Assembly: GCA_964362865.1 (NCBI GenBank)
Contig: CAYIGD010000002.1
Span: 4,253-68,252, forward strand
Length of the DNA stretch: 64,000 nucleotides
Direction: 5' to 3'
From: an uncultured Candidatus Saccharibacteria bacterium
GTDB taxonomy: Bacteria > Patescibacteriota > UBA1384 > JAGVHQ01
Positions within the stretch are counted from its first letter, which is position 1, and each line of letters starts with the position of its first letter. Made by a program: the position numbers and the translations under genes. The notes beneath the pieces are model-generated. The model was given only the letters and a program-made list of their open reading frames with translations. It made no database searches and was not told the DNA's origin. Shown here piece by piece: positions 2,076 to 62,503 of the stretch.

Positions 2076-2525
2076 ATGATGAAATTAGTTTCGCCAGATA
2101 TCGGCCACGAAAAGCCTATCATTGCTCAGTTTACCTGCGATGGGAAAAATATCGGGCCTATCCTTGCGATTGAAGGTGTTCCGAAAAGTACAAAAGCTTT
2201 TGCATTAATTCTGCACGACCCCGATGCGGTGAACGGCGACTTTCTGCACTGGAGCGTTTGGAACATTCCGCCCGATACTAAAACCTTTTCCGCGCAGAGT
2301 TTGCCACCCGGATGCCAAGAGGGTACAACTGATTTTAGCAAAGTTGGTTACGGCGGCCCCTGCCCCCCGAGCGGTACCGGAACGCATCGGTATATGTTTG
2401 AACTGTATGCGCTGCGGGAATTGCTTCAATTACCAGAGGGATCAGATCGAAAGACACTCGAAAACGCGCTTGCGACACGCGCGATCGAAAAGACGGTTCT
2501 AACCGGCCTCTATAGTCGAATGTAA
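2076..2525 (+). CDS. YbhB/YbcL-family phosphatidylethanolamine-binding protein (PEBP)
   Basis: Contains LILHDPDAV...HW and GYGGPCPPSGTGTHRYMFELYAL, which match the DPDAP and G-P-PP-G-HRY-F-YAL PEBP signature motifs. Confidence 0.75.
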   Translation: MMKLVSPDIGHEKPIIAQFTCDGKNIGPILAIEGVPKSTKAFALILHDPDAVNGDFLHWSVWNIPPDTKTFSAQSLPPGCQEGTTDFSKVGYGGPCPPSGTGTHRYMFELYALRELLQLPEGSDRKTLENALATRAIEKTVLTGLYSRM

Positions 2526-2543
2526 CAGGTTGCGCTACGATAT

Positions 2544-27304: not shown

Positions 27305-27978
27305 AGCGTTTTCCTCTTGAGCGCAAGGCGCTTCTCAAGTTGAGGGAGGGCGTTTTTAGTAATTACGACCCAGTTATGCGTGAGGACATCCAAGGCGTTC
27401 ACTTCGGCAACCGTGCGGCATGTAGTGAAAGCTAGATTCCGGGTTGCCCTCAGCATCATTGGGTCTGGTGTAATATCAATAAAAAGGATTGAGCCCTCAT
27501 CAATCGGCAAACTTGCAAGTGCCGCAAGGGCTTCTTTTGTTCGAGGTGCGTTCAATGTTAGTGCGTTTACGACAATCACTTTTTTTTCTTTCGTGTGATC
27601 CGTTAATGCGCCGATAAGCGCTCTGCGACGCAGCGTCGGCGAAATCTTTTGCGCATCAGCGGAATTTGTACGCGGCCCAAATGTGATCCCGCCACCTTTC
27701 CAAAGTGGAGAGCGAATCGAGCCGGCACGGGCTCGTCCGGTTCCTTTTTGACGCCATGGTTTTCGCCCTCCGCCTGAAACCTCGGCGCGCGTTTTAGTAT
27801 GGGCGGTGTTCTGCTTGAGACGGGCTCCATACATTACGACCACCTGTTTGGTTAATTCCGGGTTGGCCGAAGCGTGAAACACAGTTTTAGGTAACGTTTC
27901 CGCGCCTAATTTCACAAGCGTAAACGCGCTGCGTGTTCCGGTACTACTCATCGCTTCCTCGTGCGGGTTCGATCTCAA
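27301..27978 (-). CDS. rplD: 50S ribosomal protein L4
   Basis: GGGRKPWRQKGTGRARAGSIRSPLWKGGG matches L4. Confidence 0.9.
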   Translation of the reverse strand: MRSNPHEEAMSSTGTRSAFTLVKLGAETLPKTVFHASANPELTKQVVVMYGARLKQNTAHTKTRAEVSGGGRKPWRQKGTGRARAGSIRSPLWKGGGITFGPRTNSADAQKISPTLRRRALIGALTDHTKEKKVIVVNALTLNAPRTKEALAALASLPIDEGSILFIDITPDPMMLRATRNLAFTTCRTVAEVNALDVLTHNWVVITKNALPQLEKRLALKRKTL

Positions 27979-28570
27979 GCGTTATCCATGTGCCGCGTGG
28001 ACCCGGAAGAGGGCCTTTAAGCAAAATCGTCGGAGGATTCGTAGTATCTTGTACGGCGATAACTTCGCGTTCGTGGAGCGTAATCTGCGTATGGCCGAGG
28101 TGGCCGGGAAGGCGTCGTCCGCGCACAACGCGTTGTGGGAACGCGGAACCGATCGAGCCCGGAGCGCGATGATGATCCGATCCATGCGTTTGGGGCCCTC
28201 GGTGAAAACCGTGCCGTTTGATAACCCCGGCAAAACCCTTCCCTTTTGAGATCCCCTGTATCCTTACCCGGTCGCCTACTTTGAATTGAGTGGGCGTAAG
28301 TTTAGTACCGACTTCAAGGAGTGTTTTAATCTTAAATTCTTTAAGAATCCGGGTTTTCGCGCCCGATTTTTTCAGATGACCCCTGAGCGGCTTCGAGTTG
28401 TTTTTTGTATTTCCCGCGCCGATCTGCGCTGCCCGATAGCCATCTTTTTCCAGTGTTTTTACTTGAGTAACCGTATTTTCAGGTACGCTCAAAACAGTCA
28501 CGGGAATTTCTCGTCCCGAGCTCGTAAAGATACGTGTCATGCCAATTTTTTGAACTAGTAAATAACTCAT
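27944..28570 (-). CDS. rplC: 50S ribosomal protein L3
   Basis: KIGMTRIF...GKGFAGVIKRHGF.GPQTHGS matches L3. Start placed at the internal MSYLLVQK. Confidence 0.9.
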   Translation of the reverse strand: MSYLLVQKIGMTRIFTSSGREIPVTVLSVPENTVTQVKTLEKDGYRAAQIGAGNTKNNSKPLRGHLKKSGAKTRILKEFKIKTLLEVGTKLTPTQFKVGDRVRIQGISKGKGFAGVIKRHGFHRGPQTHGSDHHRAPGSIGSAFPQRVVRGRRLPGHLGHTQITLHEREVIAVQDTTNPPTILLKGPLPGPRGTWITLEIEPARGSDE

Positions 28571-28694
28571 ATACTCCAGTACTAAAACGTGTCCGGAACC
28601 ATCCCTCCGCCAGCTGGCGGATACTCGGGACGTTTTCCTGACCTCTGGAGTTAATATAGCTGATATTCCATTCGTGGTCAATATGCGTAAAACC

Positions 28695-28724
28695 GATCAA
28701 CTCCGGCTCAGTCCGGAGTTGATC
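28695..28724 (-). other. Perfect 12-bp inverted repeat (hairpin) in the rpsJ-rplC intergenic region
   Basis: GATCAACTCCGG-ctcagt-CCGGAGTTGATC. On the transcribed (minus) strand it is followed by GGTTTTAC, a weak T-tract. Confidence 0.4.
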
Positions 28725-28771
28725 AAACGACGTAAAGCAAGAGCAGTAGTCCCGCTACAGTTGCAACTGTT

Positions 28772-29095
28772 TTAGGTCTTAATTTCGATATCCACGCCAG
28801 CAGGCAGGTCTAAACTCATGAGGGAGTCGATCGTTTTAGCGGAGGGTTCCACTATGTCAATCAGGCGTTTGTGGATCCGCATTTCAAACTGCTCCCGCGC
28901 GTCTTTATGCACAAACGTCGAGCGATTCACAGTAAATAACTTCCGTTCTGACGGAAGCGGGACCGGCCCGATTACTTTTGCCCCGGTCCGTTCGGCGGTT
29001 TCAATGATTTTTTTCGCAGATCGGTCAATAATACGGTAATCATAGGCGCGTAAACGGACTCTGATTCGTTGTGTTGATTTTTCTGTAGTTGCCAC
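28772..29095 (-). CDS. rpsJ: 30S ribosomal protein S10
   Basis: [38 protein letters not shown] matches S10. Confidence 0.95.
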
Positions 29096-46687: not shown

Positions 46688-46759
46688 TACATGAAGTGTA
46701 GCACTAACCTGTTATCAGGGCAAGAAAAGAGATCCCCAGGGCAGATCCCCTGATCGAGC

Positions 46760-49294
46760 TTAAGCCTTGTTCGGAGCCTGCTCTTGGGGCGTTTGAGGCG
46801 CCAAACCGTCGGGCTGCGTTTTAACAAGAGCGGCAGATGCGACACGGTCGCCTTCGCGCAAGCGCATTAAAATCACGCCCTGCGTGTCGCGTCCGATTCG
46901 TCGGACACGTTTCAAGGGGAGTCTAATCATTGTTCCCTTAATCGAGAGCATGATGAGATCGCCCTCGTCGCCCGTGCTAACATGCATCGCAATCAACGCC
47001 CCGGTTTTGCCGGTCACTTTCGCAACTCGAATTCCCACCCCGCCGCGGTGTTGATTGCGAAAATTGGAAAGGCGCGTCCGTTTCCCAAGACCTTTCTCTA
47101 ATACGACCAAGACATCTGTTTGGTTAGTCAGTTGTTCCTGTCCGATCACGTCCACGCCGATCACCAGATCATCACTGCGCAACTTAATCGCTCGCACGCC
47201 TTCTGCGCCTCGGCCGATCGGGCGGACCTCGGTTTCGTTAAACAAAATCGCCTGGCCCTTGGCGGTTGCGATGAAGATTTCATCGCCCCCTCGTACAACG
47301 CGCACCCACTGCAACTGATCTTTGGCCCGCAGCGAAATCGCGATAATTCCGGATTTACGTACGTTTTGATACAAGCTGATCAAGGTTTTTTTGATCATTC
47401 CCCGCGAAGTTACGAACAAGATATAACTTTCAGTGAGGTTCTTCCCGCGACGTAAAGGGATCGTTGCTGTGACGCGCTCCTCAGGGGCGAGCTGGATAAT
47501 GTTTTGAACCGCAATCCCTTTTGCTTGGCGAGAGGCCGCGGGAATGTCATACACATTCGCGATAAACAGACGCCCACGATCGGTAAATAACCACATCTGG
47601 TCGTGAGTGTTTGCACCGACAACATCCAAAAGTATATCTTCTTCTTTCGGGGTCATGCCGGTGACGCCCACCCCTCCGCGTTCTTGTGCTCGGTATCCGC
47701 TCACCGGCTGTCGTTTTAAGTATCCTCCCCGCGTGAGAGTGACGATTACTTCCTCGTTCGGAATGAGATCTTCAGTGGTGAAACCTTTAAGAGCCGCGCT
47801 GACTACCCCTGTACGCCGCGGGTCGGAAAATTTATTTTTTAATTGCGTAAACTCTTTTTTGATAAGCGCCAGTATTTTTTTTGGATCTTCAAGCAACTCT
47901 TTTAGACGCGCGATTGTTTGCAGGATTTCGTCGTATTCAGCCTTGATTTTTTCGCGTTCCAACGCGGCAAGGGTTGCAAGCCGCATGTCCAGAATGGCAG
48001 TTACCTGGCGATCTGAAAGCTGAAAGGTTTTCTTGAGCGCTTGATGCGCGTCTTCCCGACTTGCTGATGCCTTAATCGTTGCGATTACGGCATCAATCTG
48101 CTGGAGGGCTTTAGTGAGCCCTTCTAAAATGTGAGCGCGATCTTGGGCGACTTTTAATTCATACTCGGCGCGCGCCTTCACTACGACCGTACGATGTTTT
48201 ATGTATTCTTCAAGAACACTCTTCAGGTTCAGTAACCTTGGTTGACGGCCGTCAACCAAGGTTACCATGTTCATATGAAAAGCGTTGTTAAGTGGGGTTA
48301 ATTCATAAAGGGCATTTAATACTTTTTTGGGATACGCAGAGCCTTTAAGATCAATCACTATTCGGACAGGATCTGTACGGTCCGATTCGTCTCGCAAGTC
48401 AGTTACCCCTTGGATTTTTTTATTTTTTACTAAATCGGCAATCTTAAGGACTAGATCCGCTTTGTTCACTTGGTATGGGAGTTCGGAAATAATAATCTTG
48501 AAATCCCCTTTTTTGTCCTGCGTGATCTCTGCCTTACCCCGCACGGTAATTCGCCCTCGGCCGGTAACATAAGCGCTCACGATTTCGGCTCGGCCGTAAA
48601 TCACCCCGCCCGTTGGGAAATCCGGCCCTTGAATGAATTGCATAAGATCTTCAACGGAAGCGGTCGGATGATCGATTAAGTGCACTGTCGCGTCGAGTAC
48701 TTCCCCCAGGTTGTGGGGGGGAATGTTGGTGGCCATCCCGACTGCGATTCCGAGCGTTCCGTTCAAAAGCAAGTTGGGGAGTTTACCGGGCAGAACCGCC
48801 GGTTCTTTGCGCGTGGCGTCATAGTTGTCAACGAAGGCCACCGTTTCTTTTTCGATGTCAAAGAGCAATTCCTCCGCCAAAGCGGTCATGCGCGCTTCGG
48901 TGTAGCGCATCGCGGCTGCGTTATCTCCATCGATCGAACCGAAGTTTCCCTGCCCTTGAACCAAGGGATAGCGCATCGAAAAGTTTTGAGCCATACGCAC
49001 CATTGAGTCGTATACCGCAACGTCTCCATGGGGATGGAATTTACCGAGAACCTCTCCCACCACGGTGGCTGATTTGCGCAGTTTCGCGCCGGAGCGCAAG
49101 CCCATCTCCCACATCGCCCATAAGATTCGACGGTGCACTGGTTTGAGGCCATCGCGCACGTCGGGTAGCGCGCGTGCGACAATCACGCTCATCGCGTATT
49201 CAAGGTAGGAACGCTCCATTTCGGGCACGATCCCACGCTCGGTTACGTTCGGGTTCTCGTTTTTTCGAGGAGTTAGTTTATGCTCTTCTGGCAT
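46760..49294 (-). CDS. gyrA: DNA gyrase subunit A
   Basis: AMRYTEARM, active-site Tyr region, GKFHPHGD, and a C-terminal beta-pinwheel. Confidence 0.97.
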
Positions 49295-53286: not shown

Positions 53287-54378
53287 TTATTTTTTCACAA
53301 GCGGGGCGTACTCGTAAACAGCGCTGCGAACTTCATTTTGAAATCGCCTCCGAGCAAAGCGGCGTGCCGCTTGAACCAGTGCCCCACGATCCCATATCCT
53401 GCGCTGCTCGCGCTCTAAGGCACGAGTTAGTGAAGAAATCGTCGGTTCGGGGAAAAATACTCCGGTCTGGGAGCTTAGGATTTCTTGAGCTCCGCCAGCT
53501 TGATACGCAATTACCGGTCTGCCAGAGGCAAGTGCTTCCACGGCTGTGATCCCAAAGTCTTCTTCTTGGGGGAAGATCAGGGCGCGTGATTTCTTGTATA
53601 GTTGGGGAATCTGTCGGTCCGAGACAAAGCCAAGGAATTTAACGGAGGGTCCCGCATCGTGTTCAAGCGCAGTGCGGCTGCTCCCAATACCAGCAACGAT
53701 GAGCTTGGCGTTGGTCCTCTTGACTGCCCCAATCGCTAGATCAACGCGTTTGTGAGGTTCTAAACGGCTGATTATGAGATACGGCGCGTTAGTTGGAATG
53801 GGAGTAGGTTTGAAACGTTCAATATCTACAGGCGGGTAGATAACGCGCGCGGTACGCCGATAGAACTTTTTGATCCGCTGGGCAACAGTATGGGAATTAG
53901 CAATGAAATGATCTACGCGTTGGGCGGCGTTGTAATCCCACGCGCGAAAAAACGTCGCGCCCAGCGGTAAAAATCGCTCCAGAAGCCGTCCAACATGCTG
54001 GAGCGCCTCATCTCTTTGGTGCCACAAGTACCGTGTTGGGGTGTGACAGTAACAAATGTGTACGGTTTCGGGTTGCGTAATAATGCCTTTGATGAAGCTG
54101 TGGGCACTCGAAATCACGACATCGTATCCGGCAAGGTCGAACTGTTCTACGTGATACGGCATCAGAGCTCGTGCGCGGTTGATGTGGAGGCGGGCCCAGC
54201 GGTGCCGATTCAAGTTGCTCGGGATAATTTTTGCCGCACGAATTCGAGCACTGGTTGTTTTTGGTTCGTACAAAAGCGTAAAGACTGGGGCATCCGGAAA
54301 GACGTCCAGTAGGGCCTCCAGGACACGCTCAGCGCCTCCGTATTTAACTAAGTAGTCATGAACCAGCGCCACGCGCAC
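53287..54378 (-). CDS. Glycosyltransferase family 4 (GT-B, RfaB-like)
   Basis: EDFGITAVEALASGRPVIAYQAGGAQEIL matches the GT4 E-G---EA-A-G-PVI motif. Confidence 0.8.
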   Translation of the reverse strand: MRVALVHDYLVKYGGAERVLEALLDVFPDAPVFTLLYEPKTTSARIRAAKIIPSNLNRHRWARLHINRARALMPYHVEQFDLAGYDVVISSAHSFIKGIITQPETVHICYCHTPTRYLWHQRDEALQHVGRLLERFLPLGATFFRAWDYNAAQRVDHFIANSHTVAQRIKKFYRRTARVIYPPVDIERFKPTPIPTNAPYLIISRLEPHKRVDLAIGAVKRTNAKLIVAGIGSSRTALEHDAGPSVKFLGFVSDRQIPQLYKKSRALIFPQEEDFGITAVEALASGRPVIAYQAGGAQEILSSQTGVFFPEPTISSLTRALEREQRRIWDRGALVQAARRFARRRFQNEVRSAVYEYAPLVKK

Positions 54379-55800
54379 CTAATACGCCCCTTTACCTTTT
54401 AGGACAATCCAGATCGTTTTCAAAAGAATCGTTATATCGAGCCAAATTGACCAGTTCTCAATGTACGTGAGATCGAGTCGGACCCATTCGTCAAATGGGA
54501 TGTCGCTACGGCCGGAAACCTGCCAGAGACCGGTAAGTCCGGGCTTAATATGCAATCGCCGACGTTGCCAGGAAGTATAATGCTCGACTTCTTCCACCAT
54601 CGGGGGGCGGGGGCCGACAAGGCTCATTTCTCCCCGCACGACATTCCATAACTGCGGCAGCTCGTCCAGGCTGGAGCGGCGCACGTAAGAGCCAAAGCGC
54701 GTTACCCTTGGATCCTCTTTCAGTTTAAACATCACCCCGTGGCGTTCCATCAATTCCTGGTGCTGCTCGTTTGCTCCGACGCGCATCGTACGGAACTTAT
54801 AGCAATTGAATGTTTTACGCTCCGAGATGCGCTTCTGAGAGAAAAAGATCGGACCAGAAGAGGTGAGTTTGATCCCCAGCGCGATCGTAAGAAAAACAGG
54901 AAGAAGCAGGAGGATACCGAGCAGTGCCCCGACTAGATCAAAGATGCGTTTGAACACCCGCCCCCAGCCGTCCAATGGAGTCCGCAGGTACGTTACGATT
55001 GGAACCCGGCCGATGGTGGAGGGCTCGACGTTTGTGGCCCGTACCTCATATAAGCTGGGTACGATTCTCACAGTCGCGTGCTCATGCTCGGCGGTTTCCA
55101 GCAGGTTCACGTTCGTTGTTATTGGTAATTGCGGATCCGCGACAAGTACCTCGTCAATTGCGCGAGAGTGTAAGATCTCCTTCAGATCTTCCAGTTTTCC
55201 GATAATCGGGATGCCTTTGAGATTGGCGTTGCTCACGCCTGCTCGGGAACGAATGAGGCCCTTAAGGCGCATCCCTAAAGAGCGATCCGCAAGAATTTCC
55301 TTGACGAGCGCAGCTGCGGTTCCGTTAGTGCCAATGATTACGACACTGCGTACTCCCACCCCATAACGATATAAAAAGCGTTCCAGCGCGAGTAAAAGAA
55401 TGCGTGCCAGCATTACAATCACAATCGAAAAGATCCAAAAATACCCAACAACAAGCCGCGAACTTAAGGTTTGATTGGTGAAGAAGAGGTAACCCACGAT
55501 GAGCGCCACACCGGTTGCGATTCCTAAAAAAAGCCCGGCGAATAGATCAAATCCGCGACGGGACTGCTTGACATTATACAAACCGGCAAGCGCAAAAATA
55601 GCAATCAGGATCGGAATAAAACCGGCGATTAAGCGCAAGAAATCCGGTAGCGGTGCGATTTCAGACAATGGAAAACGCAGCACTCCCCCAAACAATTCGG
55701 GCTGAACGCGCAATTTATACGCTAAAAAAGCCGCTGCAAAGATGCTGAGGGCATCCACGGGGACCTCTAGAACTCGAAAGAAGAGCGCAGATCTTTTCAT
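54379..55800 (-). CDS. Polyprenyl-phosphate sugar phosphotransferase (WbaP/exopolysaccharide priming transferase family)
   Basis: Multi-TM N-terminus plus the C-terminal bacterial sugar transferase domain (GPIFFSQKRISERKTFNCYKFRTM...DELPQLWNVVRGEMSLVGPRP). Confidence 0.85.
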   Translation of the reverse strand: MKRSALFFRVLEVPVDALSIFAAAFLAYKLRVQPELFGGVLRFPLSEIAPLPDFLRLIAGFIPILIAIFALAGLYNVKQSRRGFDLFAGLFLGIATGVALIVGYLFFTNQTLSSRLVVGYFWIFSIVIVMLARILLLALERFLYRYGVGVRSVVIIGTNGTAAALVKEILADRSLGMRLKGLIRSRAGVSNANLKGIPIIGKLEDLKEILHSRAIDEVLVADPQLPITTNVNLLETAEHEHATVRIVPSLYEVRATNVEPSTIGRVPIVTYLRTPLDGWGRVFKRIFDLVGALLGILLLLPVFLTIALGIKLTSSGPIFFSQKRISERKTFNCYKFRTMRVGANEQHQELMERHGVMFKLKEDPRVTRFGSYVRRSSLDELPQLWNVVRGEMSLVGPRPPMVEEVEHYTSWQRRRLHIKPGLTGLWQVSGRSDIPFDEWVRLDLTYIENWSIWLDITILLKTIWIVLKGKGAY

Positions 55801-55856
55801 ACAAATTTCTTTATTGAGTGTAGCGCATCTTGTTCATCAGGTTCAAGTTTAATACG

Positions 55857-55888
55857 CAAGAAAATCCAACTTTCGTTGGATTTTCTTG
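55857..55888. other. Perfect 14-bp AT-rich inverted repeat with a 4-nt loop
   Basis: CAAGAAAATCCAAC-tttc-GTTGGATTTTCTTG, lying between the small ORF 55910..56113 and the sugar-transferase start. Confidence 0.45.
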
Positions 55889-55909
55889 CTCCACTCGGAA
55901 TTGAATCTG

Positions 55910-56113
55910 TTATCGGGCTTTTCTAAGCATAGGAAGACCAGTGCGAGAGTTTTCCATGACTTCGTATCCTGCGGGAAGACTATCGAGGGCACCGTCTTTG
56001 ACTTGGCGGCCAAAAAAGTAAATCGTCTGCAGACGCCCACCGCGCAGCGTAACGTCACGAGAGTGCAGGTAATAGGTTTCACCAGTCTTTTTCGAAGCGA
56101 CTGAATATGCCAT
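55910..56113 (-). CDS. Hypothetical small protein (67 aa)
   Basis: Open frame MAYSVASKKTGETYYLHSRDVTLRGGRLQTIYFFGRQVKDGALDSLPAGYEVMENSRTGLPMLRKAR, co-directional with its neighbours. No family recognised. Confidence 0.4.
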   Translation of the reverse strand: MAYSVASKKTGETYYLHSRDVTLRGGRLQTIYFFGRQVKDGALDSLPAGYEVMENSRTGLPMLRKAR

Positions 56114-56216
56114 CTTGATTCACCTCCCCTCTTAACCTGTTATGCTAATTCCCCCTTATCATGGGTGTCAGTTACAGGTATGTCAAGAGGAGAGTCAAAA
56201 AAACTCATCTGGGTGA

Positions 56217-56828
56217 TTATTGACCCCGAGCTGTATCGGGCGTGTGCGTTAGATAAAGAAGCCCGATCTTGGTCAGTTCTGATTTTAAGATTTCGCGACT
56301 GCGTTGATCTTGCCACCACAGATCTTGCTGGTACCAACTCGCTCGGGCGGGCACGCTCACGACCGTAACATTTTTACCCAACGCACGTCTAAACGAAATC
56401 AATGCACGGCGCTGATGGTAGGCGGAACTGACTAAAATTATGGAATTAAGATGACGCTCTTTCACAATCTGGGCGACGTTGCGGGCGTTTTCAAACGTGT
56501 CCCGCGCATTTTCTTCCATGAGAATGTGGTCGTTACTTACGCCTTGTTTTCGGGCGAGAGCCCCCATTGCTTCGGCGTTTGAAACCTCTCCTGCGCGTGC
56601 CGCTCCGGAAAAGATGAGCAGCGGGGCAAAGCCCTCCTTGTACAAAGCGATCCCTTTTTCCGGCCGTTCCAAACCACCCCCTGAGATCACAACAATCGCA
56701 TCGGCCGCGTGCACAGCGTCTTCTGCCGCGATCCAGTTGCCTAACTTAGCGTAAAAAATATGCCGGCTCAGATACAGCACGGCGGTAAGAGCTAAAAAAA
56801 ATATAAAAATAAGAGCGAGTTTTTTCAT
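56217..56828 (-). CDS. DUF218 (YdcF/ElyC/SanA-like) membrane-anchored protein
   Basis: Signal or anchor peptide, then AIVVISGGG, DTFENA and LVSSAYHQRRA. Start placed at the internal MKKLALIF, 3 nt after the sufU stop. The longer ORF would overlap sufU. Confidence 0.7.
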   Translation of the reverse strand: MKKLALIFIFFLALTAVLYLSRHIFYAKLGNWIAAEDAVHAADAIVVISGGGLERPEKGIALYKEGFAPLLIFSGAARAGEVSNAEAMGALARKQGVSNDHILMEENARDTFENARNVAQIVKERHLNSIILVSSAYHQRRALISFRRALGKNVTVVSVPARASWYQQDLWWQDQRSREILKSELTKIGLLYLTHTPDTARGQ

Positions 56829-57190
56829 TTTTGCAGGACAGAGTGCAAAGCTAAAATAGGTAAGAACGTACATTGAGCGCGTGCCGGGTTTGGAGAAATA
56901 CCAAGTTCTTTTAAGAGCGTGCCCGGCGTAATCGTAGCAATTTCTGTTTGCGATTTTCCAACAATCATATCGGAAAGCACAGAGGCCGCCGCAATCGAAA
57001 CTGCGCATCCTGAGGTCAAAAAAGCGACCTCCGCTAAGATATCTTTTTCCCAACGCACTTGGATTCTCACAGAGTCGCCACAGGCCTCATTTGTTTTGAT
57101 CGCTTCAGCATCCGCTTTGCTCAACGCTTGTGCGTGATGCGGAGTGCGAAAGTGGTCGAGAATGATTTGGCGGTACAGTTCTGAGCTCAT
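56825..57190 (-). CDS. sufU: SUF system Fe-S cluster scaffold, NifU/SufU-like
   Basis: ILDHFRTPHHAQ...EACGDSVRIQV...LTSGCAVSIAAAS is the three-Cys IscU/SufU fold. Confidence 0.8.
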   Translation of the reverse strand: MSSELYRQIILDHFRTPHHAQALSKADAEAIKTNEACGDSVRIQVRWEKDILAEVAFLTSGCAVSIAAASVLSDMIVGKSQTEIATITPGTLLKELGISPNPARAQCTFLPILALHSVLQK

Positions 57191-61522: not shown

Positions 61523-62455
61523 ATGTCGACATTGGTTTCCGATATTGGACGGGGGATATTCGGCGGTCAAATGTCGATATTCCTGTATGTGAAAAAGGGG
61601 GGGCGGCTCACTTTTTCGGTAGTTCGCTACCTAGGATTCATCGGTGTGCACCTACCGATGCTCTATGCCCTACTCTGGGTGCTCGACCGTGGCGGGTTAG
61701 AACGCAACCTAGGGGCTGCCTGGTGGGCAATGCTGTTCACCTTTATTGGGATGCGAGTGGGGATGTCACTTGCGGAGTACTTGTTCCACCGGGACATTCT
61801 CCACGCGGCTCCCTGGCCGTGGGTCAACCGCTTTTATAGAGCGCATGAACTCCATCATGCGCTCACGCCGGCCAAGGCCTACGCCATTGAGAAAGAAGAA
61901 CAACTCGAGGCGGCCGTGTTTCCCGCCTACACGCTCCTCGCGTTTTGGGCTGTGTTCAGTTGCCTGATTGTGCCAGGGCAACTGTTAATCCCTCAGGTCC
62001 CCATCTATCTCGGCGGATATATGGCGATCGTTTCGGCGCTGGTTGACTATGAGATCATGCACGCCGCCTTCCATCGGCCCTATGCGTGGTGGCAGCGGTA
62101 CCTGGAGCATTCCCTGCCCTGGGTGCGTTGGATGGCTGACCGAGCATACAAGTACCACCTCATGCACCATGAGTGCAATACGTGCAATGAAGCCATTGCC
62201 GGATGCGGCTATTACGCGGTCTGGGACAAGTGGTTCAAAACACTCAAGATGCCAAAACACCCGCTTGTGGAGGGCACACTCGATCCGCGCGAAGATCTCG
62301 AGGCGCCGATTGCCTCGAGATTTATCCGCAGGCTTGATTGTGCGGTAGCAATTCATCAAGCGATATGGAAGTTGGAAGAAAGTACGGGACAAAAGCTAAC
62401 CCGTGAGGAAAAAAGCAAAATTGTCGCACAAAAAAGAGTTCGCTGCGCGTTGTAG
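61523..62455 (+). CDS. Fatty acid hydroxylase / sterol desaturase superfamily integral membrane protein
   Basis: Hydrophobic N-terminal half with four His boxes: HRDILH, HELHH, HAAFH and HLMHH. A strong RBS (AAGGGGTGAG) lies 6 nt upstream of the ATG. A rho-independent terminator follows immediately. Confidence 0.7.
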   Translation: MSTLVSDIGRGIFGGQMSIFLYVKKGGRLTFSVVRYLGFIGVHLPMLYALLWVLDRGGLERNLGAAWWAMLFTFIGMRVGMSLAEYLFHRDILHAAPWPWVNRFYRAHELHHALTPAKAYAIEKEEQLEAAVFPAYTLLAFWAVFSCLIVPGQLLIPQVPIYLGGYMAIVSALVDYEIMHAAFHRPYAWWQRYLEHSLPWVRWMADRAYKYHLMHHECNTCNEAIAGCGYYAVWDKWFKTLKMPKHPLVEGTLDPREDLEAPIASRFIRRLDCAVAIHQAIWKLEESTGQKLTREEKSKIVAQKRVRCAL

Positions 62456-62471
62456 TGAGAAAGGGGTGTCG

Positions 62472-62503
62472 CGGCCGGGGCAGAGTGCCCCGGCCGTTTT
62501 TTT
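62472..62503 (+). terminator. Rho-independent terminator
   Basis: CGGCCGGGG-cagagtg-CCCCGGCCG followed by TTTTTTT. It also sits 3' of the convergent ferredoxin gene and could act bidirectionally. Confidence 0.7.

Follow-up and report, generated by a model that had tools for sequence, protein, structure and literature searches.

A conserved 67-codon gene and a putative intrinsic terminator upstream of a sugar-transferase operon

Genes and expression signals at the locus

The stretch of DNA analysed here, hereafter the window, is 64 kb in length. All genes neighbouring a small open reading frame (ORF) in this window lie on the minus strand. Read in that direction, the order is SufC, SufB, SufD, SufS, SufU, DUF218, the small ORF, a hairpin, a Bac_transf protein and a GT4 protein. 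These are followed by a 203-aa protein, a DUF4012 protein, GyrB, GyrA and IF-2 and, farther on, by rpoB, rpoC, EF-G, EF-Tu and the S10 ribosomal-protein cluster. The order confirms that the hairpin is between the small ORF and the start of the sugar-transferase gene, where a preliminary description had placed it. According to domain matches, the first gene after the hairpin (54379 to 55800, minus strand) encodes a polyprenyl-phosphate sugar transferase, with Bac_transf and CoA_binding_3 domains, and the next (53287 to 54378, minus strand) a GT4 glycosyltransferase. These are the first and second conserved downstream neighbours of the small gene. Note that the listed DUF218 ORF (56217 to 57053, minus strand) overlaps the SufU gene. 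Its true start is probably the ATG at 56828, which gives a 4-nt overlap with the SufU stop codon (ATGA). Translated from this ATG, the DUF218 protein has 203 aa and retains the full DUF218 match.

The small gene occupies positions 55910 to 56113 of the minus strand, beginning with ATG and ending with TAA (55912 to 55910). Its 67-aa product carries the motifs YYLHSR, LRGG and IYFF, and is basic, with 11 K/R versus 6 D/E as counted from the sequence. In these respects, the preliminary description was accurate. It also called the ORF an orphan, which is wrong. A search of 5.8 billion proteins found at least 859 clusters of homologues, mostly 66-70 aa in length. The best 120 of these at least 859 clusters are 75-94% identical to the small protein, have lengths of 66-83 aa, and are all unnamed or 'hypothetical'. 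A GTDB scan, using two narrow peptide patterns, matched 390 species at 67-94% identity. The matches come from Berkelbacteria, genomes labelled Saccharibacteria, Nealsonbacteria and other Patescibacteria; complete 3-Mb Chloroflexota chromosomes and a few Verrucomicrobiota are also among them. The closest is a Berkelbacteria genome, which makes this lineage the probable source of the window. Across candidate-phyla-radiation bacteria (Patescibacteria), the protein is about 80% identical.

Several measures describe the constraint on this sequence. In an alignment of 28 sequences, 28 of the 67 columns are invariant. Compared with two orthologous loci, L082 and L001, dN is 0.023-0.030 and dS is 0.71-0.76, a dN/dS ratio of about 0.03. 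Furthermore, small proteins that are 80-88% identical are found beside transferase and GT4 proteins that are only 36-45% identical. Judged by these comparisons, the small ORF is a genuine gene, on which purifying selection is very strong. The earlier opinion that it deserved attention is borne out. It ranks among the most conserved genes of the locus. We also considered a role as a leader peptide or upstream ORF. This was rejected because the product folds confidently in a structural model, and is conserved along its full length.

For comparison, loci encoding a relative of the small protein were collected, 80 from GTDB species genomes and 80 from metagenomes. In 86 of 124 loci, the gene directly downstream, in the same orientation, is the sugar transferase. 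A GT4 gene follows within 2.6 kb, again on the same strand, in 78 of 111. Genes upstream of the small gene are not conserved. About 19 loci have the 203-aa and DUF4012 proteins after GT4, and about 24 have gyrB there with nothing in between (all within the set L001-L080). Patescibacteria thus have a conserved block consisting of the small gene, sugar transferase, GT4 and gyrB. The Chloroflexota contexts are different. One group has divergent BirA and a PMT_2/DUF2298 membrane glycosyltransferase, and an FAD oxidase is downstream; in a second group, a ferredoxin gene is downstream of the small gene. Adjacency to the transferase was examined as proof of functional coupling and rejected as such. 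Because the conserved order runs on into gyrB, and is missing in Chloroflexota, we downgraded this reading. Hence, the adjacency is treated as an ancestral Patescibacteria block, and as weak evidence for function. In Bacteroides, the small regulatory genes UpxY and UpxZ are found at the 5' end of polysaccharide loci. The likeness, which we take as a lead only, is that a small gene is kept at the upstream end of a sugar-transferase/glycosyltransferase locus.

Signals for expression of the small gene are readily recognised. A promoter-like site at 56158 to 56186 (minus strand) consists of TTGACA (56186 to 56181), a 17-nt spacer and CATGAT (56163 to 56158), and has 10 of 12 matches to consensus. 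The same TTGACA-17-CATGAT site is present in L001, L081 and L082. More widely, 117 of 147 homologous loci have a TTGAC box in the 140 nt ahead of the gene. A near-perfect Shine-Dalgarno sequence, GGAGGTG (56121 to 56127, minus strand), can be read 7 nt before the ATG at 56113, and GGAGG is found within 25 nt of the start codon in 123 of the 147 loci. This conservation of TTGAC and GGAGG is consistent with strong expression of the small gene. From such signals, we infer that expression is high. The gene that carries them evolves far more slowly than its neighbours.

The leader contains a further motif. The 9-mer TAACAGGTT is found at 56134 to 56142 (minus strand), about 20 nt before the start codon of the small gene. 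Exact copies occur three times in the window (2523 to 2531 on the plus strand, and 46706 to 46714 and 56134 to 56142 on the minus strand), each in the sense strand and about 20 nt ahead of a start codon. When one mismatch was allowed, TAACAGGTT was not enriched in the window compared with shuffled sequences. The copy after gyrA is part of a compact arrangement on the minus strand, in which a hairpin precedes TAACAGGTT, 5 nt, TACACT, 7 nt and the infB start codon (ATG). On this evidence, infB may have a promoter from which transcripts start with little or no leader. Orthologous leaders of the small gene contain a related inverted repeat, AACC-N6-11-GGTT (e.g. TAACCTAATTAACAGGTTA). It is present in 24 of 125 distinct leaders, compared with 1.4% of control windows, and closely follows the -10 box, at 44-82 nt ahead of the small-gene start (L002-L144). 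Such a repeat could be a 5'-terminal stem-loop of the mRNA or an operator. A second sequence, AACCTGTTAA, recurs upstream of the -35 box in orthologous leaders.

The spacer between the hairpin and the transferase contains a weak candidate promoter for the sugar-transferase operon (55817 to 55846, minus strand). It comprises TTGAAC (55846 to 55841), 18 nt and TACACT (55822 to 55817), has 8 of 12 matches, which is under the threshold of our scan, and is 16 nt before the ATG at 55800. TACACT is the hexamer also found ahead of infB. In 28 of 94 spacers between a small gene and a transferase, a site with at least 10 of 12 sigma-70-like matches follows the hairpin; this is true of 2.6% of coding control windows with the same lengths. 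Several of the spacer sites come close to consensus, such as TTGACA-17-TAAAAT in L089.

The hairpin and its conservation

The preliminary description reported a perfect 14-bp hairpin with a 4-nt loop. The repeat is indeed present, as CAAGAAAATCCAAC-tttc-GTTGGATTTTCTTG, at 55857 to 55870 and 55875 to 55888. One extra G-C pair extends the stem to 15 bp, so that the fully complementary arms are at 55856 to 55870 and 55875 to 55889. In minus-strand orientation, the element (55856 to 55889) reads GCAAGAAAAUCCAAC-GAAA-GUUGGAUUUUCUUGC, and begins 20 nt 3' of the small-gene TAA, on the same strand as the gene. The loop, GAAA, is a GNRA tetraloop. The core, UCCAAC/GUUGGA, has an A-tract on one side and a U-rich tract on the other, and is short (6 bp, of which 3 are G-C). 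Its 3' arm, GUUGGA, runs straight into UUUUCUUGC, with 6 U in 9 nt. Since an AAGAAAA run 5' of the core is complementary to this U-rich run, the whole element is a perfect 15-bp palindrome in DNA.

The minus-strand RNA is predicted to fold with an energy of -23.7 kcal/mol, compared with -6.0 +/- 2.0 kcal/mol for 200 shuffles (z -8.76). None of the shuffles matched the hairpin. Only one other 15-bp stem without G.U pairs occurs in the 64-kb window (48232 to 48265). Hence, the hairpin exceeds what is expected by chance. The second stem is a perfect 15-bp palindrome, GTAACCTTGGTTGAC-GGCC-GTCAACCAAGGTTAC, located within the gyrA coding sequence (46760 to 49294, minus strand), and has no T-run after it. 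It had been proposed that further copies of the 14-mer be sought. Allowing up to one mismatch, the two arms alone matched, and the 64-kb window has no further copy. In Rfam 15, searched with permissive E-values, no family reached its gathering threshold over the hairpin. The best overlapping match, 34 nt at the terminator end of a model for an Enterococcus sRNA, scored 15.4 bits (E 0.38), where the threshold is 440.

Our consensus terminator scan extends each stem fully before seeking a T-run. The hairpin is absent from its output because extension of the stem to 15 bp leaves GUAUUAAA, with 3 U in those 8 nt. A second scan, which accepts a U-tract starting within the 3' arm, does list the hairpin. 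Note that, in a terminator reading, the outer portion of the 3' arm therefore has to serve as the U-tract. In the window, this second scan finds only two intergenic terminator-like sites on the minus strand. These are the hairpin described here and a site at 46706 to 46751, which is 9 nt after the gyrA stop codon and ends in UUUUCUUGC. Two other structures in the window can be mentioned. Between rpsJ (28772 to 29095) and rplC (27944 to 28681), in the ribosomal-protein cluster, a hairpin of 12-14 bp at 28693 to 28726 (minus strand) is followed by GGTTTT. On the plus strand, at 62471 to 62497, there is a classic G+C-rich terminator, with a 12-bp stem, 10 G-C pairs and TTTTTTAT after them; it sits 16 nt past the stop codon of a fatty-acid-hydroxylase-like gene (61523 to 62455).

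Conservation was scored in the 67 orthologous loci in which the ORF was identified and the sequence continued far enough beyond it. To be counted, a hairpin needed 10 bp or more, a minimum of 3 G-C pairs, a 3' arm rich in T, and a position no more than 90 nt from the stop codon. A hairpin of the same design is present in 29 of the 67 loci, mostly starting 12-43 nt past the stop codon. Control windows in the same loci pass the test at a rate of 0.29% (29 of 10,160; binomial p about 1e-55). The other 38 loci, including all of the high-G+C Chloroflexota ones, have no hairpin meeting these criteria. What the orthologous hairpins have in common is an A-tract, a G+C core, a loop, the core again and a U-tract. 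The sequence of the core varies, examples being CCCCTTC, CCGCAA, CCGCC and CTCTG. The proposal that the hairpin is a functional element is upheld. The preliminary description had named an unconserved hairpin and an ORF without homologues as grounds for refutation; instead, the hairpin design is conserved and the ORF has many homologues.

Substitutions among relatives are informative. In L082 (96% protein identity) and L001 (94%), the closing G-C pair is replaced by A-U, a compensatory change. An internal G-C pair of the A-tract is likewise A-U, and one A-U pair has become G.U. Despite these changes, the predicted stem energies are -21.2 kcal/mol in L082 and -18.6 kcal/mol in L001. The nearest relative, L081, has an identical small-gene coding sequence and one mismatch in the stem. 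We conclude that constraint on the hairpin is moderate; it is real yet not absolute. Stem length on the two strands was compared in the 34 loci that have a hairpin of 10 bp or more after the small gene. The sense strand has the longer stem in 30 of them and the antisense strand in one. The advantage of the sense strand results from G.U pairs. Hence, function lies in the sense RNA, which counts against an operator in duplex DNA.

Intrinsic termination and alternative readings

The perfect hairpin is, we think with good confidence, an ordinary Rho-independent (intrinsic) terminator of the small gene. We put this forward as a putative assignment, based on the structure, the design shared with orthologous loci, the strand asymmetry and the compensatory changes. 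On the minus strand, a sigma-70-type promoter, a Shine-Dalgarno sequence, the 67-codon gene and the Rho-independent terminator would form a compact, self-contained unit. The core stem, UCCAAC-GAAA-GUUGGA, would form in the nascent RNA, with UUUUCUUGC directly after it, and transcription would stop here. The terminator would then close the small-gene transcript and shield the sugar-transferase/GT4 operon from it, while the operon may be driven by its own, weaker promoter right after the hairpin. Because separate promoter-like sites are found between the hairpin and the transferase, the small gene is probably a monocistronic unit. Placed as it is, the terminator would also reduce any transcription that continues into the sugar-transferase genes.

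E. coli and Bacillus have intrinsic terminators in which an A-tract ahead of the stem can pair with the U-tract, giving a 'bidirectional-looking' form. The hairpin resembles these in having a G+C-containing stem-loop, a stable tetraloop and a U-rich run, here 20 nt past the stop codon. In addition, pairing of the A-tract and U-tract lengthens the stem, and the design is kept while the sequence is not. In contrast to these terminators, the core here is short (6 bp with 3 G-C), and the U-run, UUUUCUUGC, is interrupted and lies wholly within the extended stem. A second useful comparison is the rplL-rpoB attenuator of E. coli, which lies between a strongly expressed gene and a weaker operon that follows it. 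The putative terminator has a similar place: the small gene before it carries strong expression signals, and the operon after it is conserved and has the same orientation. However, many of the loci studied here have a separate promoter-like site after the hairpin.

Three functions for the hairpin had been suggested in the preliminary description: an attenuator, a protein-binding operator, or part of an unannotated small RNA. The attenuator comes nearest, although the evidence points to a plain intrinsic terminator. As an attenuator, the hairpin would terminate conditionally, within a transcript that extends through the sugar-transferase/GT4 operon. The extent of read-through, on which the small protein itself or translation of its ORF might act, would then set the level of envelope-glycan synthesis. 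Such a role gains from the order of small gene, hairpin, sugar transferase and GT4, kept in 86 of 124 loci, from the weakness of the transferase promoter candidate in the window (8 of 12 matches), and from the short core of the hairpin, with which termination may be partial. However, no antiterminator structure is conserved or predicted around the hairpin, and Rfam has no match. A strong separate promoter follows the hairpin in 30% of orthologous spacers, versus 2.6% of controls. Furthermore, the conserved order reaches gyrB, so adjacency need not imply co-regulation, and the stop codon, 20 nt before the stem, is too distant for classical ribosome-coupled attenuation. Regulated read-through is not needed to account for the data, and we regard it as unlikely. 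Nor do we regard the hairpin as a riboswitch.

The operator proposal holds that a dimeric regulator, acting on the sugar-transferase promoter just downstream, binds the palindrome. Its appeal is geometric, since the perfect 15-bp palindrome ends 9 nt upstream of the candidate -35 box. Yet the half-site sequence varies among orthologous loci while the hairpin design persists, and the stems of relatives rely on G.U pairs, which would be mismatched both in duplex DNA and on the opposite strand. The palindrome occurs only once within the 64-kb window, and its arms are mainly A-tract and T-tract, as a terminator would have. We therefore abandon the operator as very improbable. Much the same can be said of a small RNA, or of a terminator for a plus-strand (antisense) transcript. 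The palindrome is terminator-like on the plus strand too, with a UUUC loop and the same U-rich arm, but no plus-strand gene or promoter-like site converges on it. Rfam offers no family, just the generic terminator-like match of 34 nt (E 0.38), and, among relatives, the sense strand gives the better structure in 30 of 34. There is hence little chance that this explanation is correct. A palindrome arising by chance, or a mobile repeat (REP- or MITE-like) without function, is extremely unlikely. That the sequence is unique in the window, so that no repeat family is seen, and that L081 tolerates one mismatch, would fit a chance origin. Conversely, the folding energy has a z of -8.76, and the design is kept at the same position in distant loci, with compensatory changes.

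As an intrinsic terminator, the hairpin is one more example of its kind, and changes nothing by itself. It does show that terminators with an A-tract and a U-tract mark gene ends in these little-studied bacteria, which aids operon prediction in their genomes.

The small protein: fold, family and possible role

The AlphaFold2 model of the small protein is confident (pLDDT 94.8), and has five beta strands and no helix. Searches of the PDB, by sequence and with a profile of 71 diverse family members, gave nothing significant, and the predicted fold has no PDB neighbour. A single uncharacterised phage protein has the same fold as the model (TM 0.73, E 3e-3). No model in Pfam-A, NCBIfam, PHROGs or PADLOC matches the protein, and keyword and peptide-motif searches of the literature found no account of the family. 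Two marginal similarities were noted. The 71-member profile showed local similarity to the glucan-binding repeat of a streptococcal glucosyltransferase (E 0.02), and the WW model was matched in four family members at E values of 1e-4 or above. Both are regarded as analogous tyrosine-rich beta-hairpin motifs. An exhaustive search of 1.8 billion representatives found 633 clusters at E values of 1e-3 or below.

Positions conserved across the wide family are L16, F34, P47, G49, G59, P61 and L63. These are structural, and do not form a catalytic-looking set, which suggests that the small protein is a binding or adaptor module. In the Patescibacteria/Chloroflexota subfamily, almost the entire surface of the protein is conserved. 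Such near-total conservation suggests a macromolecular partner that is itself conserved. As a tentative best guess, reached by inference only, the small protein might bind such a partner, most likely a nucleic acid. Cold-shock proteins (CspA, about 70 aa) are small, abundant, all-beta nucleic-acid binders. The small protein is similar to CspA-type proteins in size, number of beta strands (five), basic charge, conserved strand aromatics and strong expression signals. Unlike them, it has no match to a cold-shock domain or OB-fold above noise.

A broader view, which we hold with equal caution, is that the small protein could represent an undescribed ancient domain, with a fold lacking any solved relative. 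It would serve Patescibacteria and Chloroflexota as a housekeeping factor that binds a conserved target, and would have been recruited in antiphage systems. The target might be a nucleic acid, or the sugar-transferase/GT4 envelope-glycan machinery. In defence proteins, the domain could have been taken up as a sensor or decoy, alongside a TIR-nuclease, KAP NTPase, STAND NTPase or Shedu module.

The small protein belongs to no curated family, and is a moderately interesting lead for work on the candidate phyla radiation. Proteins of this sort from such bacteria are candidates for missing core functions, and a length of 67 aa is suited to direct biochemistry and structure determination.

The 633 clusters of the exhaustive search include larger proteins that contain the domain. 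Tandem copies are present in the archaeal-type proteins P0123, P0135 and P0157, the last of which also has CCCH zinc fingers. In other proteins, the fusion partners of the domain are TIR plus a DUF4365 nuclease, a KAP NTPase, or NB-ARC STAND NTPases. Further fusions are found in trypsin-NB-ARC, pentapeptide-TIR and Shedu SduA (SduA_C) nuclease proteins. The defence-type fusion proteins are P0137, P0150, P0175, P0224, P0229, P0248 and P0258.
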